Assembly (NCBI GenBank): GCA_030656615.1
Contig: JAUSOY010000007.1
Coordinates: 27,814 to 91,813, forward strand
Direction: 5' to 3'
From: Bacteroidales bacterium
Lineage (GTDB): Bacteria > Bacteroidota > Bacteroidia > Bacteroidales > TTA-H9
DNA length: 64,000 nt
Translations under genes and position numbers: made by a program
Notes under the pieces: model-generated
Databases searched by the model: none
What the model was told of the DNA's origin: nothing
What the model saw: the letters and a program-made list of their open reading frames with translations, nothing else
Part shown: in pieces, positions 1 through 15,709 of the stretch
Layout of the letters: each line of letters starts with the position of its first letter
Numbering within the stretch: position 1 is the stretch's first letter

Positions 1-468
1 TGCTATATATTCAGCGTCATACTGTGGATGCTCACCATATACAAGAATCAGCCTTTTTTGACCATTATCCTCCAAAGCCTCTACTTCGTGGATAATCTCC
101 ATATCATCGAGCGTTTTTCGTACAGCCTCCTTGTTGGAAGCTCTGAAGCCGCAATACCTGCAATTATTAGTACACTTATTTCCAATGTATAAAGGTGCAA
201 ATAAAACAATGCGATTTCCATAAACTCTTTTTTTGAGTTCACGGGCACCATTTTTTATTTCTTCTATCAGTTCAGGATCAGTTGCATTGATTAAGGTAGC
301 CGTTTCGGCCAGACTGAGTCGTTGTTTTGAAAGGGATTTTGCAATAATATCGCGTACACCTTGTTTATCAGGTGCAGGCCGATTAAGATGTTCCCATATC
401 TCTGCCGCATCAATAAAGGGTTTCATTCGCTGATCCTTTATACGGCATACTTCGGGTGTGAATTTCAT
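1..468 (-). CDS. hydG: [FeFe]-hydrogenase H-cluster radical SAM maturase HydG, 5' part (runs off the window edge)
   Basis: Not in the ORF track. Manual translation from the ATG at 468 gives MKFTPEVCRIKDQRMKPFID...YGNRIVLFAPLYIGNKCTNNCRYCGF...GQKRLILVYGEHP. This has the CxxxCxxC radical SAM motif and the YGNRIVLFAPLY HydG/ThiH signature. Hydrogenase context favours HydG over ThiH. Confidence 0.88.
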   Translation of the reverse strand, partial: MKFTPEVCRIKDQRMKPFIDAAEIWEHLNRPAPDKQGVRDIIAKSLSKQRLSLAETATLINATDPELIEEIKNGARELKKRVYGNRIVLFAPLYIGNKCTNNCRYCGFRASNKEAVRKTLDDMEIIHEVEALEDNGQKRLILVYGEHPQYDAEYIA

Positions 469-487
469 GATTTAGTTTTTGAAAATA

Positions 488-495
488 CAAAGTTA
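488..495 (-). promoter_or_regulatory. Bacteroidota primary-sigma -7 promoter element for hydG
   Basis: Minus strand reads TAACTTTG, matching TAnnTTTG, about 20 nt upstream of the hydG ATG. Confidence 0.55.
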
Positions 496-537
496 CCCCT
501 AATTCAAGCAGTACGATACCTGAATTAGATGGATTCT

Positions 538-1179
538 TTAGATTCCTGCTTGTTTTTTTACGAAATAAGCCACTTTTTCGAGCGAAGTTACCATGTCATA
601 TTCCTGAAGGTAAACATGAGGGGAAACATTTAAAGGTTTAGGCGTAAAGTTGAGTATACCTTTAATACCAGCGATAACAAGTTTTTCGGCAACATCAGCG
701 GCTTGTTCAGCTGGTACAGTAATGATACCGATACTGATATTTTCGCGGGCAATTATTTCGCTGAGCTTATCAAAGTGATAACAATGCACCCCGGCATATA
801 CTTTATCAACCTTATCTGGATTGGCATCGAAGCCGGCAACAATGGAAAGTTTCGAACGTTTGCCATTGAAATACCCTATTAACGACCGGCCAAGGTTTCC
901 CACTCCTATCACACCCACACGTAAGCCTTCGTCAGTATCTAAAATTTTTCCAATAAGGTCGATAAGCTCTTTTACGTCGTATCCTTTACGCAATGTACCG
1001 GAGTATCCGATAAGCATGATGTCGCGCCTGACCTGTACGGGAGTTATATGATGCAATTGTGCGATCTCATGTGAAAAGATGTGTTGTTTGCCTTTAGCTA
1101 GACAAATTAACAGATTACGTCTGTACTGACTAAGACGTTCTACTGTTTTATCGGGTAATGTTTTTGAACTTATAACCAT
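538..1179 (-). CDS. rex: Redox-sensing (NADH/NAD+) transcriptional repressor Rex
   Basis: N-terminal wHTH (LPDKTVERLSQYRR...QVRRD...GY), Rossmann GVGNLG and C-terminal GILNFTP. The ATG at 1179 is preferred over the TTG at 1203. Confidence 0.93.
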   Translation of the reverse strand: MVISSKTLPDKTVERLSQYRRNLLICLAKGKQHIFSHEIAQLHHITPVQVRRDIMLIGYSGTLRKGYDVKELIDLIGKILDTDEGLRVGVIGVGNLGRSLIGYFNGKRSKLSIVAGFDANPDKVDKVYAGVHCYHFDKLSEIIARENISIGIITVPAEQAADVAEKLVIAGIKGILNFTPKPLNVSPHVYLQEYDMVTSLEKVAYFVKKQAGI

Positions 1180-1199
1180 TTTATAATCTGCTTGTGTTA

Positions 1200-2321
1200 T
1201 CAAATTAACGGAAAATCAACGGAAAACTCACTACCCACGTCAGAAATACTCCTGACACGGATATTTCCCTGATATGTTTCAATCAGTTTTTTTATGATCG
1301 AAAGCCCAAGTCCGCTGCCGGTAATATTCTTGGTCTTTTCATTTTTGATTCGAACAAAGTCATGAAATAGACGCGACATTTCTTCTTCTGTCATTCCAAT
1401 CCCTGAATCTTTCACACGAATATGAATTTTATCATCCGAGATATCGATGTTGCATTCTACACTGCCTCCATCCTGATTATATTTCACAGCATTGGAAATT
1501 AAATTGTTAAAGATAATCTCCATTTCGGTAGCATCGGCATCCATCATCACTTCTTTCGGAGAATTTAATGTAATCCGTATATCTTTTTGAATTGCCATTG
1601 GCTTTACTGTGTCCATTGCAGCCTGAGCCAACTCCTTAAGATTCAGGCGGGTAATGTTTTTTTCTTTCTGACCGGACTCAATTCGTGTCATATCCAACAA
1701 ATCGAGAATTAAACCACGCATCCCTTTAATTCTTTTCACACTTCTGTCGAGCACCTGCTCATAATCCTCAAGTGAATTTCCCAATTGCCTTTCCTGAATC
1801 ATTTTAAGATATCCTTCGATAGCATTCAAGGGAGCTTTCAATTCATGACTTAAAACCGATAGAAACTGAAACCGAATCTGTTTTCCGGCCTGATTCATTT
1901 GCTTGGTCATCCGAACAAGAAAAACGTGTTTTGTAATGCTTTCGATTGCAGAACGCAATTCCTGAGGGGTAAAAGGTTTGGGAATAAAATCATAGGCTCC
2001 GTCAGATGTGGCTTTAACGGCCAAGTCGAGGGAGGCATACGACGTAATCATCACCACCACGATATCGAGTTTTTTCTCTTTTATATACGATAAAACCTCC
2101 ACACCCTGAATACCAGGGAGTTTGTTATCGAGCAGAACAATATCAGGAATATTACTGTTGATAATATCCAGCGCATCTTCGCCGGTAGGAGCTTCCAGAA
2201 TTTCAAACTCAAAAGCTTCTTCCATAAAAGGATAATCTACCCGAAAATTTTGCAATATTCGTTGAATCCCTGCACGGATGTAGGGTTCATCGTCAACAAC
2301 CAGTATTTTAAGTTGTGCCAT
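1200..2321 (-). CDS. Hybrid REC + HisKA + HATPase histidine kinase (soluble)
   Basis: Receiver motifs LVVDDE, LLDNKLPG and FIPKPF, H-box SHELKAPL, N-box NLISNAVKY, and G boxes DSGIG and GSGLGL. Confidence 0.9.
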   Translation of the reverse strand: MAQLKILVVDDEPYIRAGIQRILQNFRVDYPFMEEAFEFEILEAPTGEDALDIINSNIPDIVLLDNKLPGIQGVEVLSYIKEKKLDIVVVMITSYASLDLAVKATSDGAYDFIPKPFTPQELRSAIESITKHVFLVRMTKQMNQAGKQIRFQFLSVLSHELKAPLNAIEGYLKMIQERQLGNSLEDYEQVLDRSVKRIKGMRGLILDLLDMTRIESGQKEKNITRLNLKELAQAAMDTVKPMAIQKDIRITLNSPKEVMMDADATEMEIIFNNLISNAVKYNQDGGSVECNIDISDDKIHIRVKDSGIGMTEEEMSRLFHDFVRIKNEKTKNITGSGLGLSIIKKLIETYQGNIRVRSISDVGSEFSVDFPLI

Positions 2322-2331
2322 TACTATTAGA

Positions 2332-2727
2332 TCAGATTTTTAATAATTTATTGATTTCGCGGTGGAGTTGATCGGGTCGCTGCCCTTTTTCCAGAAACAG
2401 ATCGGCCTTAATCCAACGCTTGTCAAATTCCTGATTCATATCGAAATTGATACCTGTTTCGGCCGTTACTGCCGTAGCGATAATGATTGGCACCTCCGGG
2501 TATTTTCTTTTCATACGATAACTCAGGATGAACCCACTATCTTCATTCTCCATCATTAAATCAAAAATCGCCAGGTCGGGTTGTATTTTATCAATGATTT
2601 TTTCGGCTTCTTTCTGACTATCGGCTGTAATAACTTTAAAACCGAAATTTTCGACAATAATTCTTAGTTGAAACAGATAATCAGGGTCATCATCAACGAT
2701 TAGAATGGTTTTTTTTATTGTTTCCAC
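2332..2727 (-). CDS. Single-domain response regulator (receiver only)
   Basis: ILIVDDD, phosphoacceptor in IFDLMM, ATAV and FLEKG. 131 aa with no output domain; GTG start. Confidence 0.88.
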   Translation of the reverse strand: METIKKTILIVDDDPDYLFQLRIIVENFGFKVITADSQKEAEKIIDKIQPDLAIFDLMMENEDSGFILSYRMKRKYPEVPIIIATAVTAETGINFDMNQEFDKRWIKADLFLEKGQRPDQLHREINKLLKI

Positions 2728-2751
2728 AGAATGAAAAATTAATAAGGTGTT

Positions 2752-4737
2752 TTATTGATGTTTTGGAAGGCTAATAGTGAAGGTTGTTCCGGTTGATCCT
2801 TCATCCGGATTGGCGTTAGAATGGACCGATATTTTTCCTTTATGCATTTTAACAATGCCATAAATAAGTGGAAGACCTAAACCAGTTCCTTTACCTACTT
2901 CCTTCGTGGTAAAAAATGGTGTAAATATTTTGTCCAGATTTTCTTTCAAAATTCCTGTACCAGTATCAGAAATAATAAAATTAATCTCTGATGGCGAATC
3001 TGTCAATTCAATAATAATTTCGCCCCCGATTTCCGGCATGGCTTCAATGGCATTTTTGACAAGATTGGTGAGTACCTGCATCATTTGGTCTGCATCAAGC
3101 GAAATGACCGGATGACTAAGGTGAGGATGAAACTGTATACTGATGTTTGAAGGCTTCACCACCGATTCAATACTACGTAGAGTAAGTTCTACAGCATCAA
3201 CATCCGAAAGGTTTACCTGATTTTTTCGGGCAAAATTTAACAAACCACCAACAATTTTACGACATCGTCCGGTCTGTTCTACAATAAGCTCCAAATCATG
3301 CCTTCGGGGATCATCTTCCGGGAATTCGTCAAACAATAAATTAGCATACATGGTGATAACACCAAGAGGATTATTCAATTCGTGAGCAATACCTGCAGAA
3401 AGCTGCCCCATATGAGCCAGCTTTTCACTTTGCATTAGCTGTTGCTTAGCAGAGGCAAGTTTATCATTTGTAATATTTAATTCATGCACCGAATGGTGAA
3501 GTTTTTCAATGGTATGCGGTAAACACATTTCTACCTCGGCAAATCCGTTAATTATAGCAACGGCATGCTCAAAACATGTATCGTAGCCACAAGAACCACA
3601 ATTCAAATGATCATGAGGATTATATTTACCCATTGTATGGAGAACCTTCTCGATATCATCAGGAAGAGGCTGTGGTAGCCTTCGATCCTCAGGAAAATAG
3701 TCTACTGAAAAATCGATATCGCTGTAAAAATCCATATCGGCTTGCCAGGCCTCATTATCAAGGCGGCCAAGTTTATTACGCACATATTTACCCACCTGCG
3801 TTCGACGGGCATATCGGGGTATGCCCTTAGACATACCAGGTCCCATTATACATCCTTTGCAGCATAGCAGCGACAGATGATGGTCAGAAACCACTCCACC
3901 TTCAAATTCACGTATCGCGTCTTTGAAACTTTGACTACCTTCTGCAATAATAATATTACGCTCAGAAATATCTTCACGTATCCCTGCGGTCTGTAATAAT
4001 CCCCTGCTAATCGAGAAAATTGATCCCTTGCCGGAATGAGGCGGATCGAAATCAGTAGGGATGGTATTGCCGGGCGATATTCCTTTTTCTTCAAGCAATT
4101 CTCGTAATTCTCTAAAAGTAATCGCCTCATCCACTTCCTGCGATTCTGCTTTTTTTGCGATACAAGGACCAATAAATACGACTTTTAGTTTATCGCCTTC
4201 CTTTTTTCTCAAAATACGGGTCATGGCAACCATTGGTGAAACAATCGGTGCCAAGCGGGGAGTTAAATTCGGATAGTAATGTTTTATATAATATACGATT
4301 GCCGGACAATCGGATGATATTTCACCCTCACTTTTTCCGGAATTTATAAGTTTACTGTATTCTTTGGCTATCATATCGGCACCAAAAGAAACCTCGGCAA
4401 CAATGCTAAAACCAAGTGCCCTCAACATACCCACCAATTGTTTATGATCTTCAAGTTCAATAAACTCGGCTGGAAAACTTGGTGCCACGATGGCAGCCAC
4501 TTTTTGTCCGGATTCAAGCAGTTCATTAACCTCGTATTTCGATTGTAAAAAGACTTTTGCATTCTGGCTACATACTTTCACACAATTTCCACATCCGATG
4601 CAACGCTGACTCACAACCTGCGCCTGACCATTGATAATCTGTATGGCTTTAACCGGACATTCGCGCACACAGGTATAACACACCCGACACCGGTCCTTGA
4701 TGGTAAATACGAGATCGCTTCTGAAAGATTTACTCAT
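2752..4737 (-). CDS. Sensory [FeFe]-hydrogenase-like domain fused to a histidine kinase (group C1-like)
   Basis: Two 4Fe-4S motifs (CRVCYTCVREC, CIGCGNCVKVC), H-domain motifs APSF, SSDCPA, GPCIAKKAE and CCKGCIMGPG, FeS motif CGSCGYDTC...MC, a coiled coil, then H-box AHELNNPL, NLVKNA, DTGTG, PFFTTK and GTGLGL. Confidence 0.9.
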   Translation of the reverse strand: MSKSFRSDLVFTIKDRCRVCYTCVRECPVKAIQIINGQAQVVSQRCIGCGNCVKVCSQNAKVFLQSKYEVNELLESGQKVAAIVAPSFPAEFIELEDHKQLVGMLRALGFSIVAEVSFGADMIAKEYSKLINSGKSEGEISSDCPAIVYYIKHYYPNLTPRLAPIVSPMVAMTRILRKKEGDKLKVVFIGPCIAKKAESQEVDEAITFRELRELLEEKGISPGNTIPTDFDPPHSGKGSIFSISRGLLQTAGIREDISERNIIIAEGSQSFKDAIREFEGGVVSDHHLSLLCCKGCIMGPGMSKGIPRYARRTQVGKYVRNKLGRLDNEAWQADMDFYSDIDFSVDYFPEDRRLPQPLPDDIEKVLHTMGKYNPHDHLNCGSCGYDTCFEHAVAIINGFAEVEMCLPHTIEKLHHSVHELNITNDKLASAKQQLMQSEKLAHMGQLSAGIAHELNNPLGVITMYANLLFDEFPEDDPRRHDLELIVEQTGRCRKIVGGLLNFARKNQVNLSDVDAVELTLRSIESVVKPSNISIQFHPHLSHPVISLDADQMMQVLTNLVKNAIEAMPEIGGEIIIELTDSPSEINFIISDTGTGILKENLDKIFTPFFTTKEVGKGTGLGLPLIYGIVKMHKGKISVHSNANPDEGSTGTTFTISLPKHQ

Positions 4738-4744
4738 ACAGTAA

Positions 4745-6469
4745 TTATAACAATATATTTCTTTTCGAATAAGAAGTTCTAAAATTCATTACAGGTGAAC
4801 CATCCACTTCCTGCTTTTTAAGTTTGTTCATTAGTTCAGTCAATCCTGGATTTTTATGACTAACCCTGATGGTTTCCTTGTCATCCATTTCGTATATAGC
4901 TTTGGCCCGTGCTTTTATGTCTTTTTCGGAAAGTCCTATCGGTTGTCCACCACCATAAATACATCCACCTTCACAAGCCATAACTTCAATAAACTGCAGA
5001 TCAGAGCGGCCATTGCGTATTTCATTAATCATTTTCCGGGCTTCCGCCAATCCACTTACTACGGCAAAACCAAGCTGGTACCGGCCCATTTTTATAAAAT
5101 ATTCTCTACGGGATGCCGAGGAACGCAATTCATTTATTTTAAGATTATCCATTTCATTCCCCGTAATCATAAAATTCAATGTGCGGATTACGGCCTCAGC
5201 CACTCCACCGGAAACAGCATATAAGCGAGCTGCAGAACTCCGAAGATTATAAGGAGCATCGGTTTGTTCCGGTTCGATATTCTGCATATCAATTCCATAA
5301 AGCTTTATCAAACTGGCCAGTTCACGGGTTGTTAGAACGGCGTCATTGTGGGTTATTCCCCTTAAAGTCATTTCTTCACGCTGAGCTTCGAATTTTTTTG
5401 CCGTGCATGGCATAATAGAAACCGTGAAAAGATTTTCGGGATGAATTTTCTGTTGACGGGCATATGATTCTTTGATAATCTGCCCCATAATCTGCTGAGG
5501 AGACTTTACCGTACTGATATGTGCCAGCATATCCGGATAAAACTCTTCAGCGAATTTTATCCAACCGGGACAACAACTCGAAAACATGGTTGATTTATTA
5601 CCCGATTTTATCGAATCAGAAAGCTGGGATGCTGTTTCGTAAATAGCAGCATCGGCAGCGAACGCCGTTTCGAAAACCTTTGCAAATCCTATTTTTCGTA
5701 ATGCAGCAATTAAAAGTCCGGAAATGTCTTTTCCACTTCTGAAACCAAATTCCTCAGCCAAAGACACCGAAACGGAAGGCGAAAAATGAACATTTACCTG
5801 TAGCGAAGGCTGATGCAAAGCATCCATAACCTTTTTAATATGCGTTTTTTCGTACAAGGCACCCGTAGGACAAACCATAATGCATTGGCCACAATCAACA
5901 CATGTTGATAAATTAAGTCCTTTATTGTATGCCGTTCCTATCACCATGCGATTACCACGTCGTATAAAATCAATGGCAGATACAGAAACCGTTTCATCAC
6001 AAACCCTAACACATCTCCCGCACAGGATACATTTGGCAGGATCACGCAAAATGCTTGGGCTGGCATGATCCTTTTTATGCATATTCTTTTTCCCCGAGAA
6101 ACGTTTTTCGCGAACATTCAAATCGATGGCTAAATCCTGCAATTCGCAGTTACCATTTCGCTCGCAATACAAACATTCATCGGGGTGATTGCTTAGAAGC
6201 AATTCCACTATCTGTTGCCTAGCTTTAATAACGCGCGGAGAATGCGTCTTTATCTTCATCCATTCTTCAACCGGATGCGAGCAGGACGGTATCAAATTAT
6301 TCTTCCCATCAACCTCTACAACACAAATACGACAGGCTCCGGTTGGTGAAAAACCATTCATGTGGCAAAGCGTAGGAACATTCAGTCCGTTACGATTTAG
6401 GCACTCCAGAACCGTTTCACCCTTCTTCGCTATGATTTGCTTATTGTTTACTTCAATATTAAACAGCAT
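4745..6469 (-). CDS. hydA: [FeFe]-hydrogenase HydA/HndD-like subunit (group A3 architecture, atypical active-site surroundings)
   Basis: N-terminal 2Fe-2S, His-ligated 4Fe-4S (HPDECLYCERNGNC) and two 4Fe-4S motifs. H-cluster motifs FSSCCPGW, MPCTAKKFE and EVMACEGGCIYGGGQP. Lies directly downstream of NuoE/NuoF-like genes. Confidence 0.88.
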   Translation of the reverse strand: MLFNIEVNNKQIIAKKGETVLECLNRNGLNVPTLCHMNGFSPTGACRICVVEVDGKNNLIPSCSHPVEEWMKIKTHSPRVIKARQQIVELLLSNHPDECLYCERNGNCELQDLAIDLNVREKRFSGKKNMHKKDHASPSILRDPAKCILCGRCVRVCDETVSVSAIDFIRRGNRMVIGTAYNKGLNLSTCVDCGQCIMVCPTGALYEKTHIKKVMDALHQPSLQVNVHFSPSVSVSLAEEFGFRSGKDISGLLIAALRKIGFAKVFETAFAADAAIYETASQLSDSIKSGNKSTMFSSCCPGWIKFAEEFYPDMLAHISTVKSPQQIMGQIIKESYARQQKIHPENLFTVSIMPCTAKKFEAQREEMTLRGITHNDAVLTTRELASLIKLYGIDMQNIEPEQTDAPYNLRSSAARLYAVSGGVAEAVIRTLNFMITGNEMDNLKINELRSSASRREYFIKMGRYQLGFAVVSGLAEARKMINEIRNGRSDLQFIEVMACEGGCIYGGGQPIGLSEKDIKARAKAIYEMDDKETIRVSHKNPGLTELMNKLKKQEVDGSPVMNFRTSYSKRNILL

Positions 6470-6498
6470 AATTTAATCGTTTTAAAGCGTTTAATGGC

Positions 6499-8442
6499 TT
6501 AGTGAACACTAATGGCATTAAATTTACAAGCTTCGTAACAAATACCACATCCAATGCACTTATCCTGAACGATAAAATGCGGATTACGCTGAACTCCAAT
6601 AATTGCTGATGTTGGACATTTGCGTGAGCAAATGGTACATCCCGTACATTTATCAGTATGTATATAGAAGGTTTTTAGACCTTTACACACATTTGCACGG
6701 CATTGACGGTCGAAAATGTGTTCTTCAAACTCATCCCGAAAATAACGCAGGGTACTGATAACCGGGTTTGGTGCAGTTTGTCCGAGGCCACAAAGGGAAG
6801 TATCTTGGATTACTTCAGCAAGTTCCTCAAGCATCATGACACCCTTGAATCTTTCAAGACTTTCATGTTTATCGTCGTCGGTCGGTTTTTTAGTTATCGA
6901 TTCCAAAATTTCAAGCATACGACGAGTCCCCTCACGACATGGGATGCATTTTCCGCAACTTTCGTTTTGCAAAAACTTCATAAAAAACTTAGATACGTCT
7001 ACCATACATGTGTTTTCATCCATCAGTACAAGACCGCCAGAACCCATCATGGCATGTTCGCGCTCCAGATTTTCATAATCAATGGGGATATCAAGGCATG
7101 AACTATCCAGACAAGCCCCTGAAGGTCCGCCAATCTGCATCGCTTTGAAATCCTTATAATCCTTTACTCCTCCTGCAATATCATAAATCAGGGTACGAAA
7201 AGTAGTTCCCATTTCCACCTCAATTAAACCCGTGGTCAATGATTTACCACTCAATGCAAAAACCTTCGTTCCCTTGCTGGTTTCTGTTCCCATATTTGTA
7301 AACCACCCGGGACCGTTCTGAACAATGGAAGGCACATTGGCCAGCGTTTCCACATTATTAACAATGGTTGGTTTACCAAAGAGACCTTTTACTGCAGGAT
7401 ATGGAGGTTTTGGTTCAGGAGTACCTCGTTTTCCTTCTATACTATTAATTAAAGCAGTTTCTTCTCCACATACAAAAGCACCCGCTCCAATTTTTATTTG
7501 TAAATAGAAATTAAAACCACTATCGAGGATATTATTTCCAATAAGCCCCATATCCCGGGCTTGCTGAATAGCATTTTCCAGGTTTTTAACAGCAAGCTTA
7601 TATTCCGAACGTATATATACAAAAGCCTGGGAAGCACCAATAGCATATGCAGCTATAGCCATTCCCTCGATGAGTTTATGTGGATCACCTTCAATAAGAG
7701 CTCTATCCATAAAAGCACCAGGATCGCTTTCGTCGGCATTACAAATCAGGTACTTCTGATCGCTTTGCGCGTTTAATGCAATATTCCATTTTTCCCCGGT
7801 AGGAAAACCGCCACCTCCACGACCCCGTAATCCGCTTAACTCTATCATTTGACATATATCAGCAGAAGTATAATTAAGAATGGCTTTTCCAAAAGCCTTA
7901 TAACCATCATATGCAATGTATTCTTCAATACTAAGAGGATCGATGATACCACAATTTTTCAGAACGATACGCTTTTGACGACTAAAAAAATCAATCTGTG
8001 AAATAAATGGTACGCCTTCCCAGGTGACCAGATTATCGGTCTTAAACTGGTAGAGAGAAGCTTCGTGTAATGTATTATTGAAGACGGCATCAAGAAGCCC
8101 AAAGACTTTCTCATGCGTAATGTTACTGAAAGCCAGACGATTTTTTCCCGGAAGCTGAATATCGATCAGTGGTTCAGCAGAGCACAGGCCAATGCATCCG
8201 ACTTCAATAACTTCTGCTTTTATTTTAAATTCATTGAGGTAATTTCTGACCGCTGCGGCCGATTTATGTGCTCCGGCAACAATACCACAAGTTCCGGCAC
8301 CGATGTATATAATTGGTTTCTCAACCCGCAACCTTCGCAGTTGAGATAACTTATCATCGATATAACGGGGATATTCGTTGGTTTCGTTCAAAACCACACT
8401 GCTAATAAGCGGATTTTTTATTTTTCGGGATTCGTGAGACAT
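6499..8442 (-). CDS. hydB: HydB/NuoF-like FMN- and NADH-binding diaphorase subunit
   Basis: Thioredoxin-like N-domain, GRGGGGFPTG, NADESDPGAFMDR, GAGAFVCGEETAL, GGPSG, SCGKCIPCREG, SLCGLG and two C-terminal 4Fe-4S motifs. Confidence 0.92.
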   Translation of the reverse strand: MSHESRKIKNPLISSVVLNETNEYPRYIDDKLSQLRRLRVEKPIIYIGAGTCGIVAGAHKSAAAVRNYLNEFKIKAEVIEVGCIGLCSAEPLIDIQLPGKNRLAFSNITHEKVFGLLDAVFNNTLHEASLYQFKTDNLVTWEGVPFISQIDFFSRQKRIVLKNCGIIDPLSIEEYIAYDGYKAFGKAILNYTSADICQMIELSGLRGRGGGGFPTGEKWNIALNAQSDQKYLICNADESDPGAFMDRALIEGDPHKLIEGMAIAAYAIGASQAFVYIRSEYKLAVKNLENAIQQARDMGLIGNNILDSGFNFYLQIKIGAGAFVCGEETALINSIEGKRGTPEPKPPYPAVKGLFGKPTIVNNVETLANVPSIVQNGPGWFTNMGTETSKGTKVFALSGKSLTTGLIEVEMGTTFRTLIYDIAGGVKDYKDFKAMQIGGPSGACLDSSCLDIPIDYENLEREHAMMGSGGLVLMDENTCMVDVSKFFMKFLQNESCGKCIPCREGTRRMLEILESITKKPTDDDKHESLERFKGVMMLEELAEVIQDTSLCGLGQTAPNPVISTLRYFRDEFEEHIFDRQCRANVCKGLKTFYIHTDKCTGCTICSRKCPTSAIIGVQRNPHFIVQDKCIGCGICYEACKFNAISVH

Positions 8443-8445
8443 GGC

Positions 8446-8907
8446 CTAATCCTCCTGATTTCGAAGTTGATCAATAATGGTCCGCATTTTCTCGGGATTT
8501 ACATTTCCGTGATAATCACCGCCGGTTTCTACCACGGGTGAAAGACTACAAGCTCCCATGCATTGAACTGTTTCCAAACTAAAACTCCCATCACGACTTG
8601 TTTCGCCGGCACTAATTTTCAATTCTTTCACAATCTCAGAAAGCACCTTTCCGGAACCCATCACATGACAAGCAGTGCCGTTGCATACGCGTACGTGGTT
8701 TTTTCCTTGTGGACTAAAACGGAACTGATCATAAAAAGTGGCAATGGAGTAAATACGGGATGTAGGAATCTGCAAATAAACAGCCACCTCATTTACTGCT
8801 TCCTGCGTCAGATAGCCCTGCTCACGCTGTATTTCCTGCAGTATTGATATCAGGGCATCCTTCCCTGCATTGAGAAATCGCTCAAATATTCTGCTGAATT
8901 TATCCAT
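8446..8907 (-). CDS. hydC: HydC/NuoE-like 2Fe-2S subunit
   Basis: LISILQEIQREQGYL, ATFYDQF, CNGTACHV and CMGAC. Confidence 0.92.
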   Translation of the reverse strand: MDKFSRIFERFLNAGKDALISILQEIQREQGYLTQEAVNEVAVYLQIPTSRIYSIATFYDQFRFSPQGKNHVRVCNGTACHVMGSGKVLSEIVKELKISAGETSRDGSFSLETVQCMGACSLSPVVETGGDYHGNVNPEKMRTIIDQLRNQED

Positions 8908-8969
8908 ATAATAATACTTAGTTTCGTGTTAATCATGAATTGGCAACTAAAATAAACTTTTTTTTAATA

Positions 8970-9004
8970 GTGTTAGAGAAATAACATTGTTATTTTATTA
9001 ACAA
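8970..9004. promoter_or_regulatory. Two adjacent Rex-type operator palindromes in the divergent promoter region
   Basis: GTGTTAGAGAAATAACAT (8970-8987) and TTGTTATTTTATTAACAA (8987-9004). The second is one mismatch from the clostridial-type Rex box TTGTTAANNNNTTAACAA, and rex is in the locus. Confidence 0.72.
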
Positions 9005-9149
9005 GTAACGATTTTTTGTATCTTTCAACTTTTCAAGCAGATGTACGTACTTTTATGCAAATATATTCAATATACTGCCTTTAATGTACTGATTTATACC
9101 ATAAGAATAAAGGCATTTGCTTATTTTTGACATCAAAATCGCAAGCGGG

Positions 9150-9398
9150 ATGGAAAATAAAACCGAAATAGTTATTTGTCTTGGTAGCAGTTGTTTTTCG
9201 CGCGGAAACAAAACTACTGTCCGTTTAATCGATAACTGGCTAAAAGAAAACCGTTTACGCGATAAAGTGTATTATCATGGCAATCATTGTTTCGCCAATT
9301 GCGATAAAGGTCCTGTACTTAAAATAGACGATACCATTCATCATCATGTGGATGCCGAAAAAGCCATTCAAATTCTTAAAGACTACTTCGGATTATAG
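9150..9398 (+). CDS. Small thioredoxin-like 2Fe-2S protein (HfsA-like)
   Basis: ICLGSSCFSRGN and HCFANCDKGP. First gene of an hfsABC-like arrangement. The ATG at 9150 is preferred over the TTG at 9117. Confidence 0.85.
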   Translation: MENKTEIVICLGSSCFSRGNKTTVRLIDNWLKENRLRDKVYYHGNHCFANCDKGPVLKIDDTIHHHVDAEKAIQILKDYFGL

Positions 9399-9410
9399 AA
9401 AATAATAAAC

Positions 9411-11300
9411 ATGCAAGTAATAGAATTCGATAAAGAGAAATGTAAACTTTGTTATGCCTGTGTCAGGGTTTGTCCTACCAAGGCTATAGCCGTAAAGACC
9501 AATGAGGAATATCCTCAGGTGCTTCATAACCGCTGCATAGGATGTGGGAGCTGTTTATCGGTATGTTCGCCCGAAGCTCTCACTTTCATTGATTCTACCC
9601 TGGAAGTACAAAACCTGCTCAAAAGTGGTGTTGATACCATTGCTATCGTGGCTCCAAGTATTTCAGGGGAATTTCCCGACATCACTGATTACCGGAAATT
9701 CGTGAGCATGATACGCGCTCTGGGATTTAAATATGTTAATGAAGTTTCTTTCGGTGCCGATTTAGTAGCTGCGCAGTATAAAGATTTAATGAGCGATTTC
9801 AAGGGGAAATATTACCTCAGCTCGCTATGCCCGTCGCTTACGGCCTATATTCAATCATTTTACCCAGAACTTACCGAAAATCTTACCCCCATTGTTAACC
9901 CCATGGTAGCCACTGCCAAAGTGGTGCGAAAAAAATACGGAGATCACATAAACGTTGTATATATATGCCCCTGCGTTTCCGCCAAAGATGAGGCGCGCCT
10001 GCATACCGGTGATGGAAGAGTAGAAGCCGTCCTGACATTTACAGAACTTCGAAAAATGTTTGAGGCAGCCGGAATCACAGAACATAATCGCGAATATTCC
10101 GAGTTTGATGGTCCAATCGGTCATCTCGGTTCGCTCTTTCCCATTTCCAACGGTCTTCTTCAAGCGGTCGATCTGGACGAAAGTTTGCTAAATGGAGAAA
10201 TCATCACGATAGAAGGAAAAGAAAACTTTCTGGATGCCATCAAGCAGTTCAGCAAATATACCGAGCGCATTCGCCGGCATTTTAATATCTTTTACTGCGA
10301 TGGCTGCATGATGGGTCCCGGAACCTCTTCGGGTGGCGAAAAATACCTTCGCCGGACACTCGTTACAGAATATGCCAATAAACGGCTTAAAGCTTTCACT
10401 CCCGAAGAATTCGAACGTTCGATGACTGAGTATACGGGGATAGAACTCTCATGCAGTTTCAAACCCAACGATCAACGCATTGCCATGCCACCGGCCGAAA
10501 AGATTGAAGAAATCCTAAAAGTTATCGGTAAACATGGCAGCAATCCTTACCTCGGGTGTGGAGCCTGCGGCTATGAATCATGTCACGAATTTGCTATTGC
10601 TGTAGCTAAAGGTCTTGCAAAGCCAGAAATGTGCCTCACGTATAACCTTCGCAATCAGATAGAATATATACGCACACTCAAGGGCACCAACGAAAAACTG
10701 GCAAAAACGGAATCGGCACTTAAAAACTCCGAAAAAACGGCGAGACGCGAACAGCAAGCCTCTCAGGATGCCAACGAAATCATCACCGCCATGCTTCAGA
10801 AACTACCCTCTGGCGTGGTAATCGTTGATGAACATCTTAAAATTATTCAGGCTAACAAAACTTTTGTAGAAATATTGGGTGAAGATGCCCGTATGATTGA
10901 TGAAGTAATTCCAGGATTGGCCAGTGCCGACCTAAAATCCCTCCTCCCCTATACCTTTTACAATCTGTTTTCATACGTCCTTAAAAATAATGAAAGTATT
11001 ACCAATAAAGACACCAAATACCACGAATCTCTGCTAAACGTATCAATTTTCCCAATAAGACACGGGAAAATTGTCGGGGCGGTCATTCGCGATATGTATG
11101 TACCTGAAGTACGCAAAGAACAAATTCTGTCACGCATCAACGAAGCAATTCATGAAAACCTGAGTATGGTTCAGCAGATTGGCTTCCTTTTAGGCGAAGG
11201 TGCTTCCAAAACTGAACGCATGCTAAACTCCATTATACAAAGTTACCGCCTCGACGAACACAATAAAGATCAGCACAGACTTACTGAAGACGAATCATGA
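9411..11300 (+). CDS. PAS-domain [FeFe]-hydrogenase-like sensor (HfsB/HydS-like, group C)
   Basis: Two 4Fe-4S motifs, H-domain remnants SSLCPS, CPCVSAKDE and YCDGCMMGPG, FeS motif CGACGYESC...MC, a coiled coil, PAS (LPSGVVIVDEHLKIIQAN) and the HfsB-type tail VQQIGFLLGEGASKTE. Confidence 0.87.
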   Translation: MQVIEFDKEKCKLCYACVRVCPTKAIAVKTNEEYPQVLHNRCIGCGSCLSVCSPEALTFIDSTLEVQNLLKSGVDTIAIVAPSISGEFPDITDYRKFVSMIRALGFKYVNEVSFGADLVAAQYKDLMSDFKGKYYLSSLCPSLTAYIQSFYPELTENLTPIVNPMVATAKVVRKKYGDHINVVYICPCVSAKDEARLHTGDGRVEAVLTFTELRKMFEAAGITEHNREYSEFDGPIGHLGSLFPISNGLLQAVDLDESLLNGEIITIEGKENFLDAIKQFSKYTERIRRHFNIFYCDGCMMGPGTSSGGEKYLRRTLVTEYANKRLKAFTPEEFERSMTEYTGIELSCSFKPNDQRIAMPPAEKIEEILKVIGKHGSNPYLGCGACGYESCHEFAIAVAKGLAKPEMCLTYNLRNQIEYIRTLKGTNEKLAKTESALKNSEKTARREQQASQDANEIITAMLQKLPSGVVIVDEHLKIIQANKTFVEILGEDARMIDEVIPGLASADLKSLLPYTFYNLFSYVLKNNESITNKDTKYHESLLNVSIFPIRHGKIVGAVIRDMYVPEVRKEQILSRINEAIHENLSMVQQIGFLLGEGASKTERMLNSIIQSYRLDEHNKDQHRLTEDES

Positions 11301-12481
11301 GCAGCAGAATTCACATTGAAGTTAATTGTCAGCAAATAAATCATGGCGTCGAAAAAATTTGCGGCGATGTATTTGTTTCGAAGCGCATCAAGGAAGAAGG
11401 ACGTATTATCATGGTGCTTTCTGATGGAATGGGACATGGTATAAAGGCCAATATACTTGCAACCCTAACTGCTACCATGGCATGCAACTTTACTCAGGAA
11501 CATAAAGATGTCAGAGTAATTGCCGAAATCATCATGAATACACTCCCTGTTTGCAGCGAGCGTAAAATATCCTACTCCACATTTACCATTGTAGACATTA
11601 ATGGCGATGGGGAAACCAATATTCTCGAATATGATAATCCGCAATGTGTAATCATGCGTGGAAAGCAGGTATTTGACCCGGGTTGGACACAAATTATAAT
11701 GGAAAGTGAAGCCAATAAAGGAAAAGAATTACGGACCTGCCAGTTTTTTCCAAAAAAGGAAGACCGTTTGATATTTTTTACTGATGGTGTGGCTCAGTCA
11801 GGAATGGGATCTGTAAAATACCCTTTTGGATGGGAAAGAGATTTAGTTCAGGATTTTTGTGTAAATCTGGTAGAAAACGAAAATGCGATTGCAGCCTCAC
11901 GTCTGGCCGCCAAGGTTGTTAATTTTGCCCATATAAACGACGGCTACCGTAGTAAAGACGACACCAGCTGTACCGTGGTTTATTTCCGTGAACCTCGTAA
12001 AATGTTATTATGCACAGGCCCTCCCTATGAAGAAAGCCGCGACGCAGAATATGCCGCCGAAGTTGCTGAATTCAAAGGAAAAATTGTTTTATCGGGTGCT
12101 ACTACTTCTGATATTGTAGCTCGTGAACTTAAAAGAGAAATTACTGATAGCTTTGATTTTGATGATCCCGAGCTTCCTCCGATCAGCTATATGGATGGTG
12201 TTGAATTCATTACCGAAGGCATACTCACCCTTACCAAAGCCACCGAAATACTTCGCGACTATTCCAACAATACCCGCCTTGGAAAAGGCCCCGCTGACCG
12301 CATGGTTCGTCTCTTTCTTGAATGCGACGAAATTCATTTCATCATTGGCACCCGAATCAACATTGCACATCAGGATCCAAATCTGCCGATCGAACTCGAA
12401 ATACGACGCACGGTGGTAAAACGTATTGCCAGGTTGCTCGAAGACAAATTCCTGAAAGAGGTTAGCTTGAAATTTATTTAG
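11297..12481 (+). CDS. SpoIIE/PP2C-family Ser/Thr phosphatase (HfsC-like)
   Basis: ICGD, LSDGMGHG, FTDGV and KDDTS metal-binding motifs. Overlaps the upstream stop (ATGA). Confidence 0.9.
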   Translation: MSSRIHIEVNCQQINHGVEKICGDVFVSKRIKEEGRIIMVLSDGMGHGIKANILATLTATMACNFTQEHKDVRVIAEIIMNTLPVCSERKISYSTFTIVDINGDGETNILEYDNPQCVIMRGKQVFDPGWTQIIMESEANKGKELRTCQFFPKKEDRLIFFTDGVAQSGMGSVKYPFGWERDLVQDFCVNLVENENAIAASRLAAKVVNFAHINDGYRSKDDTSCTVVYFREPRKMLLCTGPPYEESRDAEYAAEVAEFKGKIVLSGATTSDIVARELKREITDSFDFDDPELPPISYMDGVEFITEGILTLTKATEILRDYSNNTRLGKGPADRMVRLFLECDEIHFIIGTRINIAHQDPNLPIELEIRRTVVKRIARLLEDKFLKEVSLKFI

Positions 12482-12531
12482 AATATATTCCGGGGTTTCT
12501 TTATAAATAATATCACATTGACCAGTATTGG

Positions 12532-13158
12532 TCAAATCACACCAATAAAAACGAAGCCATCTTTGATCAAAATGATGGCAAAAACAATCAGGACAATTCC
12601 CAAAAATCTCATCAGATACATATATGCCGTATTGCTGAAAATATTTTTAGTTTTTTCGGAAATGATGGCCATCAGCATTTTTGAACCGGTAATGAATATA
12701 TAAAACCCTAAAACAAATAAAACAGCAGCCAACAAATTTAATTTCAGGGCTTTTAAAGTTATTGGTGCACCCACCAACATCCAGAACAGATAGGCATGTG
12801 GGCTAAGTATGTTCGCCAGAATTCCCTTTCTGAAAGAATGAATCGATGAGTTTTCTGTAGAAATTTCGGCGGGTTTTATATTTATTGTCTCGTATGCCAT
12901 ATATAATAAAAACACAGCACCCGCCAATGATATCATACCCAATACGATTCCAAAATCAGACATTTTAGCTAAAATAAGCAGCGACAGAGCCACAATTGGC
13001 AAATCGGAAAACAAAGGAGCAAGCGCAATTTTCATCCCCTCCTTGCGATTATATTTCATGGTTTCTGAGATAACCATGGTTAACAAGGGACCAGGAGTAA
13101 TACCAGCTATTAATCCGAGAGTTGCTCCGGTGATAAAAAATTCTAAGGTTTCAATCAT
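12532..13158 (-). CDS. LysE/RhtB-family translocator
   Basis: TPGP motif, NILSPH motif and about six hydrophobic segments. Confidence 0.88.
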   Translation of the reverse strand: MIETLEFFITGATLGLIAGITPGPLLTMVISETMKYNRKEGMKIALAPLFSDLPIVALSLLILAKMSDFGIVLGMISLAGAVFLLYMAYETINIKPAEISTENSSIHSFRKGILANILSPHAYLFWMLVGAPITLKALKLNLLAAVLFVLGFYIFITGSKMLMAIISEKTKNIFSNTAYMYLMRFLGIVLIVFAIILIKDGFVFIGVI

Positions 13159-13318
13159 TAATTCAATTTTCTCGAAATTCTCAGGTCACTCATTTTACTG
13201 ACACACTATAAATCTATCATAAACCCAATGATTTTTTCAATTTATGAATAGTTGAATTTTGCAGAAAACCCTTTTGTTATTCGAGCTTCCATTCCAGAAT
13301 ACCACCAGAAAATCCATT

Positions 13319-15709
13319 CTAAAGTTCGATCTCCAGTTTAATTGATTTAGTTTTTACAGGCGCAATTTCTATCGTATTCATTCCATCTTTAAAAACAGGA
13401 TACTGACCATTCTTTTTTACTTCATTCCATTTCCCATTTTCCAGATACCATGCTTTCCAGTTTTTCGGAATCCTGCAGCCCCCATCCGGACCGTCATCAA
13501 ACCAGTAGACATGAATGTATGAAATTTCCATCGCATCCTTAAAATCGTACCGCACCCATTCTTTGCTTCCTTTATGGTTCCAAAAAGTAAAACGAGGGAT
13601 TTCCTGATCATTCGATTTTTTGGGAATGCGCTGATCATTCAAAGCCAAAATCTGGTCGTAGACGTAGGATGCACTGGGGCTGCTTTCAGAAGCTATGGTG
13701 GGTGGTGGTAATGCACGAGCAGCTTTTTCGTCATAAGGAAACCAAACCATCATTTCGCCATTTCCACGATGTGCCCAAGCATAATAAGGAATTAGATTTA
13801 GCTTTTGTTCTTTCTTAATGACATTCGATTTGGAATCCATAGAAACGGAATAAGCATTAGAATGCATTGTATGAATCCCGTGCAATAAAGTCGGTTGATT
13901 TAATAATTCAAAATCGAGTTCCTTATCAATTAGAAAATTTCTGACTTTGCCTCCATTATCGATTCCCTCGGCGCAATATACTAAAGGGCCACGACTAAAG
14001 GCCATTTTATCCATATCGTCTTCTATCATTTTATGAGCAACAATTTTCCGAACTGGCATAGGCAATTTCAATTGAATTTTATCACCCGGCAACCATTCCT
14101 TTACAATTACAGCGTAGCCATGGTAGATAACTGTCTCAACCAATTCGCCATTGATCTTTAATAAGATTTTCTCCTCCGGTTCGTTTTGAAAACGGTACAA
14201 ATCACCCGGAAAAGGCTGATCCCCCGCCCATGAAGGAATTCTTAGCATGACTGTAAAAGACTTCTGAACTTCAGGGTTTAATTCAATATCGATTGTTCCA
14301 TCCCATGGATAATTCGTAGACTGAATAATATTAAGTTTGCCGAAGTCCATATTAATTTCAGCACGATTTCCGATATACAGATTTACGAATAACTGATTCT
14401 CTTTCTGTGCATAAATATATCCGGGCAGGGAAGGAAGAAAACGGGCCACATTTGTAGGACAGCAGGAGCAATCAAACCAGGGCGAGCGTTGATGGCTGCC
14501 ATCCGACTCCAATGGATTTGGATAGAAAAAGCGATCGCCATCCAAACTTACTCCCGAAAGAAACCCGTTGTACAGGGTACGTTCTAAAACATCAATGTAT
14601 TTAGCGTCACCGCTTAAAAGAAACATCCGCTGATTCCAAAAAATATTCGCAATGGCTGCACAGGTTTCGTTATATGCCGAAAGATTCGGAAGAAAATAAT
14701 CCGGACCGAAGGCTTCTCCTGAATGCATGGCACCAATTCCACCAGTGATGTATAGTTTTTTATCAACAACATTCTCCCAAATTATTTCCACAGCATTTTT
14801 ATAGGCAACGTCACCTGTAAGAGCAGCTATATCGGCCATTCCGGTATACATATATGCTGCTCTGACGGCATGTCCTTCGGCAGTGCATTGATTCACTACC
14901 GGCATATGATCCTGTGTGTAGGTCAAATTGCTTCCATCAGCGCCATAGGTATAAAGAGTACGGATTTTCGCATTGCCTCTTTGATCCAGAAAATATTTCG
15001 CCATATCAAGATACTTTCGTTTACCTGTAACTCTATACAATTTCACGAGGCCAATTTCAATTTCCTGATGTCCGGGAACGTCATGCAATTGATCCTTGTT
15101 CGGACCAAAAACCCTGCAGACCAGATCAGCACTTTTGAGCGCCACTTCAAGGAGATTTCTTTTTCCTGTGGCTTCGTAATATGCCACAGCAGCCTCATAC
15201 ATATGTCCAATATTATATAATTCGTGCGACTGTTTCAAAAGCGACCACCGCTTCTCGCCCGCATTGGATATAACTGTATCCGGATTAATGGTTCTGGCGG
15301 TATAGAGATATCCGTCATCTTCCTGAGCTGCCGCCACAAGGCCAATCAAACGATCCATGTATGTTTCGAGTTGTTCATCCGGGAAAGTACTGAGTGAATA
15401 GGCCGCTCCTTCCATCACTTTAAAAACATCCGAATCATTGTATCGTATTCCTTTAAACGAGCCTTTTTTAACCCCACCAGCAATCGAAAAATTATCGATC
15501 CGATTCGTTTCCTCACACTTTTTAAAATCATAAGGTATGGTGACTTTCCTGTTGGTTTCCAGGCGTGGAAGCCAAAAATGATCAGTAAGTCTGACGTTTT
15601 TAAAGGATACCGGTTTAACCGGATAATCGGATGATAAGGGCGATTCGGATTTACGGCTGCAAGAACCGGAAAGTAAAATTATCGATAAAAACAACAGGAC
15701 TTTTTTCAT
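13319..15709 (-). CDS. GH127 beta-L-arabinofuranosidase-like lipoprotein; probably truncated by an amber codon 14 codons before the natural end at 13277
   Basis: DSDVFK, SHELY, GHQEIE, GHAVR, YNETCAAIA and CSCCP motifs. Lipobox-like MKKVLLFLSIILLSGSC from the ATG at 15709. C-terminal discoidin-like beta domain. Confidence 0.88.
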   Translation of the reverse strand: MKKVLLFLSIILLSGSCSRKSESPLSSDYPVKPVSFKNVRLTDHFWLPRLETNRKVTIPYDFKKCEETNRIDNFSIAGGVKKGSFKGIRYNDSDVFKVMEGAAYSLSTFPDEQLETYMDRLIGLVAAAQEDDGYLYTARTINPDTVISNAGEKRWSLLKQSHELYNIGHMYEAAVAYYEATGKRNLLEVALKSADLVCRVFGPNKDQLHDVPGHQEIEIGLVKLYRVTGKRKYLDMAKYFLDQRGNAKIRTLYTYGADGSNLTYTQDHMPVVNQCTAEGHAVRAAYMYTGMADIAALTGDVAYKNAVEIIWENVVDKKLYITGGIGAMHSGEAFGPDYFLPNLSAYNETCAAIANIFWNQRMFLLSGDAKYIDVLERTLYNGFLSGVSLDGDRFFYPNPLESDGSHQRSPWFDCSCCPTNVARFLPSLPGYIYAQKENQLFVNLYIGNRAEINMDFGKLNIIQSTNYPWDGTIDIELNPEVQKSFTVMLRIPSWAGDQPFPGDLYRFQNEPEEKILLKINGELVETVIYHGYAVIVKEWLPGDKIQLKLPMPVRKIVAHKMIEDDMDKMAFSRGPLVYCAEGIDNGGKVRNFLIDKELDFELLNQPTLLHGIHTMHSNAYSVSMDSKSNVIKKEQKLNLIPYYAWAHRGNGEMMVWFPYDEKAARALPPPTIASESSPSASYVYDQILALNDQRIPKKSNDQEIPRFTFWNHKGSKEWVRYDFKDAMEISYIHVYWFDDGPDGGCRIPKNWKAWYLENGKWNEVKKNGQYPVFKDGMNTIEIAPVKTKSIKLEIEL

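Follow-up and report, generated by a model that had tools for sequence, protein, structure and literature searches.

A divergent Bacteroidales locus that probably encodes a trimeric [FeFe] hydrogenase together with its own Rex- and sensor-based control system

A 64,000-nt stretch of a Bacteroidales bacterium genome (assembly GCA_030656615.1, contig JAUSOY010000007.1, positions 27,814 to 91,813; the whole stretch is hereafter the window) opens with a divergent locus in which hydC, hydB and hydA are accompanied by genes for a hydrogenase-domain histidine kinase, a single-domain receiver, a receiver-histidine kinase, Rex, the maturase HydG, a PAS-domain sensory hydrogenase and a Ser phosphatase. 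The locus probably comprises divergent operons that encode a trimeric [FeFe] hydrogenase linked to NADH and ferredoxin along with the control system of that enzyme, repressed by Rex and tuned by H2 sensors. This reading draws on the gene content, the intact motifs, the conserved synteny, the co-occurrence of operator and rex, and the contiguity of two hydrogenase loci in a relative. The contig carrying the window (C20) belongs to a 3.56-Mb, 90-contig genome with a completeness of 96.8%. Genes were called from an open reading frame listing and from Pfam and NCBIfam domain scans of the window, and these scans found, at its coordinates, every gene named in the initial annotation of this DNA.

On the minus strand, reading outward from the shared intergenic region, hydC (8446–8907) encodes a NuoE-like [2Fe-2S] subunit (PF01257 at 1e-49), hydB (6499–8442) a NuoF-like subunit with a flavin mononucleotide (FMN)/NADH module and two C-terminal [4Fe-4S] domains (Complex1_51K, PF01512; NADH_4Fe-4S, PF10589; two Fer4), and hydA (4745–6469) a [FeFe] hydrogenase large subunit of the catalytic type whose N-terminus carries 2Fe-2S and 4Fe-4S domains, identified by PDB and NCBIfam matches. 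These are followed by the gene for a 661-residue hydrogenase-domain histidine kinase, a putative group C1-like H2 sensor kinase (2752–4737, Pfam), by a 131-residue single-domain response regulator consisting of a receiver only (2332–2727, Pfam), by a receiver-histidine kinase of REC-HisKA-HATPase_c architecture with no other sensor domain in its Pfam matches (1200–2321), by rex (538–1203), which overlaps the receiver-kinase gene by 4 bases at the stop of the upstream gene, and, 69 bases downstream of rex, by hydG, the radical-SAM H-cluster maturase gene. The N-terminal 156 codons of hydG lie at 1–468 (TIGR03955 partial match, 1e-33 range); the gene runs off the window start, and its full reading frame on the contig encodes 475 residues with Radical_SAM and BATS domains. 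On the plus strand, an 82-residue HfsA-like, thioredoxin-like [2Fe-2S] ferredoxin (9150–9398, ATG at 9150; PF01257 at 4.6e-9) precedes a 629-residue HfsB/HydS-like PAS-domain sensory hydrogenase, hereafter PAS-hydrogenase (9411–11300; Fer4, Fe_hyd_lg_C, PF04060 and PAS), and a 394-residue PP2C Ser phosphatase of the SpoIIE/RsbX-like type (11297–12481, Pfam), the last two genes overlapping by 4 bases. Because the gaps within each arm measure only −4 to 69 bases, each arm looks like one operon, and the plus-strand operon stops after PP2C, where the next gene is a convergent LysE gene.

Rex is a well-supported member of its family, matching NF003995 at 193.8 bits (cut-off 126), with a PF06971 winged-helix N-domain, a PF02629 Rossmann domain and a conserved GxGxxG motif, and the window copy is the only rex in the genome, as judged by the single PF06971 match. 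A pattern search of the shared intergenic region, where Rex-type boxes had been proposed in the initial annotation, located two abutting Rex-type operators at 8970–9004 (18-mers 8970–8987 and 8987–9004), comprising the palindromes TGTTAGAGAAATAACA (8971–8986) and TGTTATTTTATTAACA (8988–9003) with the core TGTTA-N6-TAACA. The second 18-mer deviates by one mismatch from TTGTTAA-N4-TTAACAA, the Firmicutes-type Rex operator consensus. Sites with at most one mismatch number six in the 3.56-Mb genome, and three of them precede hydrogenase operons, namely that of the window locus and two on a second contig, C89. The other three precede genes for glutamate dehydrogenase, a malic enzyme-phosphotransacetylase fusion and an extracytoplasmic function (ECF) sigma factor, and a TTGTGAA-type site precedes nuoA. 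These non-hydrogenase sites (L096–L099; contigs C2, C32, C71 and C60 for glutamate dehydrogenase, the ECF sigma factor, the malic enzyme fusion and nuoA, respectively) lie 33–162 bases upstream of their genes, and NAD(P)H-linked genes plausibly form a small regulon under Rex. At three mismatches the consensus showed no excess in the window (8 found, 12.1 expected), and the bare core was not enriched genome-wide (8 found, ~10 expected); the weight rests only on the better matches and their placement.

To compare relatives, we searched with the kinase fusion, taking one genome per species, which gave 349 confirmed relatives, and mapped the window proteins onto the best 80 of these, full-length and 60–70% identical; the denominators of the per-gene counts are the loci with enough sequence on the side of that gene. 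Record titles assign nearly all 80 loci to Bacteroidales or Bacteroidota metagenome-assembled genomes (MAGs), including Prolixibacteraceae, Lentimicrobiaceae and Draconibacterium. Two loci titled Syntrophothermus sp. (L022) and Alphaproteobacteria bacterium (L065) carry the same locus at 63–65% identity, like the Bacteroidales MAGs, and their odd titles likely reflect mis-binned contigs or mislabelled MAGs. Database proteins related to the kinase fusion numbered 7338 at E 1e-20 or better. A phylum-wide search with the hydrogenase domain (H-domain) matched 24 of 401 genomes at E 1e-90, which gives only a rough prevalence of group-C-like genes, as this count mixes the kinase fusion with PAS-type paralogues (the window PAS protein itself scores 8e-109).

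Synteny in relatives, set beforehand as a test by which the proposed hub could be refuted, was strongly kept, so refutation on the ground of missing synteny fails. We found hydA in 78/78 loci, hydB in 73/74, hydC and the lone receiver each in 74/74, and the receiver-kinase in 66/66; rex was present in 47/66, the PAS-hydrogenase in 51/67, PP2C in 47/63, and the HfsA-like gene in only 13/80. The loci take two forms, a core form consisting of hydCBA, the fusion, the receiver, the receiver-kinase and then hydG, often with one or two extra single-domain receivers upstream, and an extended form, in which rex and a divergent arm with the PAS-hydrogenase and PP2C are also present. Of the rex-carrying loci, 42/42 have the PAS-hydrogenase, versus 1/16 of the rex-less loci, and 39/44 have a Rex box with at most two mismatches upstream of hydC, versus 2/19 of the rex-less ones. 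All five rex-less-form genomes that were checked carry rex elsewhere, yet have no box at hydC, and therefore it is a locus-borne rex, not rex as such, that goes with a locus-borne operator. In these loci rex, its box and the Hfs-like arm behave as one package added to the core.

These data bear on the simplest alternative, that the neighbours are merely co-located and that the two-component genes, the phosphatase and rex serve unrelated targets. No output or target was identified in the locus, and Rex is a global regulator with sites at other redox genes, both of which would fit such an arrangement. However, gene order is kept in 66–78 of 66–78 loci at 60–70% protein identity, the kinase is physically fused to an H-domain, the genes overlap or sit within 30 bases of one another, and the box and rex co-vary, so we regard simple co-location as very improbable.

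The kinase fusion contains two Fer4 [4Fe-4S] domains, a Fe_hyd_lg_C H-domain, a PF04060 four-cysteine iron-sulphur motif, and HisKA and HATPase_c domains. To number its residues and those of the other window H-domain proteins, we aligned the three with one another and checked the alignment against the Clostridium pasteurianum CpI chain, whose numbering HydA shares in this region. The fusion carries the motifs SSDCP, GPCIAKKAE and LLCCKGCIMGPG, retaining all four cluster cysteines with D, G and C at positions 299, 353 and 497. In 81 sequences, the cluster cysteines, Asp at position 299 and the H-box GIAHELNNPLG are each invariant (81/81), and there is little or no variation in the GPC and GCIMGPG motifs. 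For comparison, we read position 299 in 150 proteins, each representing a 50%-identity cluster retrieved with the H-domain, with kinase linkage judged by phmmer. The residue was mostly A, P, S, T or C; Asp occurred in only 3 of the 150, all fragments of 259–283 residues with 56–66% identity to the query that look like the same clade as the fusion. Among the 43 kinase-linked representatives, position 299 was P in 13, T in 10, A in 8, S in 4, N, H and F in 2 each, and L and W in 1 each, with no Asp, and Asp-299 is therefore a signature of this Bacteroidales clade. Asp is also the one substitution at this position reported to retain 30–80% activity in CpI and HydA1 (PMC6226526). The phosphorelay residues are likewise preserved, with the acidic pocket and D56 of the lone receiver conserved in 75 sequences, and D65 and H158 of the receiver-kinase in 68.

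The PAS-hydrogenase shares with the fusion two N-terminal 4Fe-4S motifs and an extra four-cysteine motif. Its H-domain motifs are SSLCP, CPCVSAKDE and FYCDGCMMGPG, with L, C and Y at positions 299, 353 and 497 and all four cluster cysteines retained. Of 52 sequences (orthologues from L010–L089), 42 have N at position 299 and 8 have L, the window protein being among the latter. At the C499-equivalent, 32 have Asp, 10 have Asn and 10 have Cys, the last residue being confined to the ten PAS-hydrogenases of the window's subclade.

The adjoining PP2C phosphatase is the sole SpoIIE-family gene of the genome (single PF07228 match), keeps its metal-binding Asp residues in 53/53 sequences and matches RsbX weakly (E 0.006). 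Its C-terminal domain (residues 232–394, window 11990–12481) is highly conserved and matches no Pfam family. A weak match of this domain to SIS-like structures (E 0.16) was the only lead in PDB, and ESM Atlas contains stand-alone look-alikes of 150–230 residues from Spirochaetota, Bacteroidota and Kiritimatiellota.

The enzyme itself resembles group A3 HydABC. The best PDB match of HydA is 8a6t HydA1 at 1e-149, with E-values of 1e-149 to 1e-124 across the group A3 structures 8a6t, 7q4v and 7p5h; the protein scores 424.3 bits against TIGR02512 (group A), above the cut-off of 405.95, and 678.9 bits against the NF040763 'A6' model, under the cut-off of 765. The H-cluster motifs are SSCCPGW, MPCTAKKFE and EVMACEGGC (EVMACEGGCIYGGGQP), and HydA retains the cluster cysteines C300, C355, C499 and C503 as well as C299, S319, M353, K358 and M497. 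A small-subunit-like C-terminal match is weak, at 24 bits versus 92 in the C89 paralogues. HydB is 77% identical in the nearest relative (L010), making it the best-conserved enzyme subunit of the locus. A fully canonical HydA was ruled out by the proton-path residues, which are T279, Q282 and S286 where CpI has E279, E282 and R286. The claim of the initial annotation that all three H-domains deviate at catalytic residues thus stood in part: the two sensors differ at 299, 353 and 497 and HydA at 279, 282 and 286, but none has lost a cluster ligand, and the change in HydA concerns the proton path only. In six Lentimicrobiaceae-type HydA proteins (L048, L053, L061, L072, L075 and L089) the motif reads SSDCP, so that a C299D exchange occurs naturally in a sequence that is group-A-like in other respects; in the same proteins position 278 is Gln and position 279 is Ile or Thr.

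The genome encodes six H-domain proteins, three in the window locus and three on the 25.6-kb contig C89, where the hydrogenase locus (L008; G000:C89:5000–24999) holds two more hydABC sets and a third sensor. One arm of that locus comprises hydC, a short hydB (387 residues), hydA and a receiver gene. The other holds genes for a DRTGG-like protein, an RsbW-like kinase, a 463-residue sensor-type H-domain protein and a DRTGG protein, along with a PHP protein, a HATPase protein, a NuoE-like protein, hydB, hydA and hydC. The prediction that a canonical hydABC would be found elsewhere in the genome was borne out, as both C89 HydA proteins have E279, E282 and R286. The divergent region of C89 contains four Rex sites within two mismatches, out of 61 genome-wide, and one further Rex-like site lies before the second C89 hydABC. 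The best HATPase_c_2 match was the RsbW-like kinase beside the third sensor, the only such kinase in the genome, flanked by the two DRTGG proteins; with this sensor and kinase, the hub is larger than first described. The 596-residue C89 HydA (L008:6400–8190, minus strand) reads TSCSP, placing Ser at the C300 column, as does the solved Acetobacterium woodii HydA1 chain in our alignments. In the 387-residue C89 HydB (L008:8209–9372, minus strand), Pfam recognised nothing beyond the FMN/NADH core, and the two terminal iron-sulphur domains of other HydB proteins were not detected. A DDE transposase-like frame at the C89 end (L008:19005–20000, plus strand) may explain the assembly break. The remaining maturases, HydE and HydF, are encoded on C32 and C77, respectively, complementing HydG at the window locus.

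Among the five relatives checked, the nearest, G001, repeats the three-plus-three pattern of H-domain genes on two contigs, and G002 has all six such genes within 29 kb. In G003, both loci form one ~26-kb block of a single contig. Its first arm runs outward from the centre as rex, receiver-kinase, receiver, fusion, hydA, hydB and hydC; the second, divergent from the first, carries the PAS-hydrogenase and PP2C; and a third block, converging on PP2C, consists of hydC, hydA, hydB, NuoE-like, HATPase, PHP, DRTGG, sensor, RsbW-like kinase and DRTGG genes, beyond which lie genes for a receiver and a kinase-like protein and another hydA. Given this contiguity, the window locus and the C89 locus together make up a single unit. 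The core-form genome G004 encodes no H-domain protein besides HydA and the kinase fusion.

Several observations, concerning both the control system and the enzyme, weigh against our reading of the locus. The absence of a hydC box from the rex-less form limits Rex control to one form of the locus. Matches to TAnnTTTG, the Bacteroidetes −7 promoter element, face hydC at 9058–9065 (minus strand) and the hfsA-like gene at 9122–9129 (plus strand); both are pattern matches only, and the hydC-facing one would put the Rex boxes downstream of that promoter. On the output side, no output regulator is encoded in the locus, and all receivers in these loci are single-domain or kinase-linked; neither a DNA-binding response regulator nor a STAS partner is encoded there, and the genome has no stand-alone STAS protein, its sole STAS match lying inside a 556-residue frame. 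The Asp or Asn at the C499-equivalent in 42 of 52 PAS-hydrogenases casts doubt on a full H-cluster in most relatives. Finally, at the proton-path positions that differ in HydA, the CpI variants E279A/Q are left with below 1% activity and E282Q with 8.2%, and the effect of R286A is mild (PMC6226526); HydA lacks E279, E282 and R286, and therefore the enzyme may be slow.

The substitutions in the PAS-hydrogenases raise the alternative that the sensors read the redox state of ferredoxin or NADH through ordinary iron-sulphur clusters and PAS, rather than H2, with the H-domain serving as a degenerate scaffold. Such a role would accord with the loss of Cys at the C499-equivalent and the variation at position 299, with the two N-terminal 4Fe-4S domains and extra four-cysteine motif carried by both sensors, and with Hydrogenedentota group C1 proteins, in which H-cluster motifs could reportedly hardly be found (PMC11406978). 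However, a scaffold of this kind is difficult to reconcile with the strict conservation of the cysteines, Asp-299, GPC and GCIMGPG in the 81 kinase fusions or with the retention of HydE, HydF and HydG in the genome, and the related sensory hydrogenase TmHydS has been reported to bind a normal H-cluster (PMC10055695). We consider it improbable that the sensors are blind to H2.

A second alternative concerns HydABC, which on this account would itself belong to a mainly regulatory unit and act as a slow NADH/ferredoxin/H2 comparator, leaving bulk H2 turnover to the two C89 hydABC sets. The residues T279, Q282 and S286, at positions where CpI variants lose most activity (PMC6226526), favour this account, as do the canonical path and the separate Rex boxes of the C89 paralogues. 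In 76 HydA orthologues from the 80 loci (at least 80% coverage and at least 45% identity, four loci being left out), each of the four cluster cysteines is kept in 76/76, while E279 is kept in 50 and lost in 26; E282 is kept in 45, R286 in 71 and C299 in 67. E279 is present in every plain core-form, rex-less locus whose HydA was examined, and all 26 losses fall in extended-form or truncated loci; the account leans on this recurrent loss of E279 where further hydrogenases occur. In addition, HydA (68%) and HydC (62%) are less conserved relative to the nearest relative than the regulators (70–86%).

Against a regulatory HydABC stand the retention in HydA of C299, S319, M353, M497, K358 and all cluster ligands, the full domain set of HydB together with its 77% identity, and a proton path that is canonical in most orthologues. 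Moreover, Glu at position 278, conserved in 70 of 76 orthologues and adjacent to position 279, could substitute as a proton-path residue in place of E279, and sensory enzymes without the path have been reported still to turn over by another route (PMC10055695). The suggestion in the initial annotation that the unit is mainly regulatory is not the preferable reading in view of the kept HydA ligands, the complete HydB/HydC module and the core-form genome G004, where this HydA is the sole hydrogenase. We thus regard a regulatory HydABC as unlikely, albeit less so than sensors that serve as mere redox scaffolds.

Returning to the enzyme with its own control system, which we favour, we propose the following sequence of events. 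Rex, the only NADH/NAD+ sensor of the cell, would bind both palindromes and repress at least the hydC arm at low NADH, as may be expected from the operator and from established Rex biology. Rising NADH would then lift repression of the hydC operon, rex and hydG included, and because Rex would repress the operon that encodes rex, it would regulate itself. The trimeric HydABC would dispose of NADH and ferredoxin electrons as H2, and once the operon is expressed, the two proteins with an H-cluster site but lacking a fast catalytic environment would act as reporters of H2 or of redox state. The kinase fusion may autophosphorylate and, in a multi-step His-Asp relay, serve as phosphodonor for both the lone receiver and the receiver domain of the receiver-kinase. 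The PAS-hydrogenase may control the translationally coupled PP2C, which would oppose the RsbW-like Ser kinase encoded beside the third sensor on C89, with the DRTGG proteins or the enzyme complexes as candidate substrates of this Ser switch. Here, H-cluster binding by the sensors, their response to H2, their phosphorylation partners and their outputs are what we infer. The initial annotation wired the phosphorelay, the phosphatase and NADH sensing together, a connection that is likewise an inference because the output of neither branch is encoded in the locus. It had also assigned to the unit control of the maturation genes, which applies to hydG insofar as that gene can be reached by co-transcription, but not to hydE or hydF, as no Rex-like site with up to three mismatches was found upstream of either gene, nor in the rex-hydG gap.

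A bolder arrangement, to which we give little credence, would make HydABC and the fused paralogue an H2/NADH comparator rather than a bulk enzyme with a passive sensor. It would require, jointly, that a proton relay working via the invariant Asp-299 lets the sensor kinase equilibrate fast with H2, that the gain of extra canonical hydABC sets was followed by repeated loss of the fast proton path from HydABC, that HydABC, as the slow partner, sets the reference potential of the kinase from NADH and ferredoxin, and that the outputs, namely the single-domain receivers and a phospho-switch at Ser residues of DRTGG proteins, act post-translationally on enzyme complexes rather than on transcription.

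Each module of the locus is known, and their combination is what appears to be new. The kinase fusion resembles group C1, of which no member is known to have been characterised, in its linkage to a histidine kinase, its cluster cysteines with altered C299, M353 and M497, and its extra four-cysteine motif, the changes at these three positions being a published hallmark of sensory [FeFe] hydrogenases (PMC10055695). In Petrimonas mucosa, the kinase-linked group C1 protein ING2E5A_0849 has been reported to adjoin hnd genes (PMC7768429), so that both kinase proteins come from Bacteroidales and have an NADH-linked hydrogenase of three or four subunits as a neighbour, and kinase-linked group C1 proteins beside NADH-linked hydrogenases have also been described in Hydrogenedentota (PMC11406978). 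Unlike other group C1 proteins, the fusions described here have Asp-299 in 81/81; the likeness to C1 is judged from domains and residues, and HydDB places some kinase-bearing proteins in C3 (PMC11406978). The fusion is also like TmHydS of Thermotoga maritima in its conserved ligands, altered C299, M353 and M497 and missing canonical proton path (PMC10055695), whereas TmHydS combines Ala-299 with a PAS output and the fusion combines Asp-299 with a kinase output.

The plus-strand arm recalls hfsABCD of Thermoanaerobacterium saccharolyticum and HydS-HydA2 of Ruminococcus albus, where a small iron-sulphur protein, a PAS-hydrogenase and a Ser phosphatase are likewise combined in one operon. HfsB and HydS, adjoining a Ser phosphatase, are regarded as regulators, a role inferred from deletions (PMC5707799, PMC11837493), and the pair of hfs/HydS and phosphatase appears in a 2026 preprint on Kiritimatiellia. 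As in the hfs operon, a Rex-type site lies upstream, which in T. saccharolyticum is TTGTTAATAAATTAACTA at −78 (PMC5886521). In contrast to these systems, the operon contains no HfsD/HydA2-type ferredoxin hydrogenase and is divergent from a trimeric hydCBA instead, and its putative HfsA counterpart is confined to the minority of loci noted above.

The subunit set and domain order of HydABC are those of the group A3 enzymes of Thermoanaerobacter kivui (8a6t), A. woodii (7q4v) and T. maritima (7p5h), from which the window HydA differs in its three proton-path residues; electron bifurcation would be assigned by analogy with these enzymes. Operator consensus and targets, namely hydrogenase genes and hydG, are like those of Firmicutes Rex regulons (PMC5886521; Caldicellulosiruptor bescii, PMC6391272), sites with the same core having been reported in T. 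saccharolyticum, where predicted Rex sites precede hfsABCD and hydG (PMC5886521). Unlike in those regulons, rex lies inside the hydrogenase operon of a Bacteroidales genome, as its only copy. PP2C and the RsbW-like Ser kinase, located on C89 here and adjacent in G003, resemble RsbU/RsbX-RsbW-RsbV partner switching, with the difference that two DRTGG proteins flank the kinase and a stand-alone STAS antagonist is missing. A full-text literature search returned no description of the combined locus, of the Asp-299 clade or of proton-path loss in a linked HydA, although supplements and papers beyond those searched may contain one.

The locus is bounded at 12532–15811 (minus strand) by a LysE-type exporter gene and a gene for a GH127 beta-L-arabinofuranosidase carrying an F5/8 type C domain, both unrelated to the hydrogenase genes. 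An Rfam scan of 1–13300 gave no match, and scans for sigma-70 promoters and terminators yielded chance-level results only. When the neighbourhood of the hyd genes was searched for sigma-54 activators, only an unrelated gene with such an activator domain turned up, at window 31392–31895, ~19 kb away, and no link between it and the hydrogenase genes was found.

Whether group C [FeFe] hydrogenases sense H2, and how a signal leaves the protein, is an open question in the field. In the literature, group C enzymes are still termed 'putative' sensors or 'thought to' be sensors (PMC12578642, PMC7768429), and the literature searched on this locus contained no study demonstrating H2-dependent signalling for any group C member. 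The chief value of the locus is as a tractable system in which H2 sensing by [FeFe] sensors can be tested. The histidine kinase fusion gives a direct readout, as autophosphorylation can be compared with and without H2, and the clade is large, with carriers including the cultivable genera Draconibacterium (by record titles) and Petrimonas (by the literature). The locus further supplies natural proton-path variants in a catalytic-type HydA, and the pairing of one kinase with one phosphatase narrows the search for Ser/Thr substrates. With regard to anaerobic carbon turnover, the locus points to a way in which Bacteroidales that ferment in sediments, groundwater and digesters may match H2 release to their NADH load and to H2 back-pressure.

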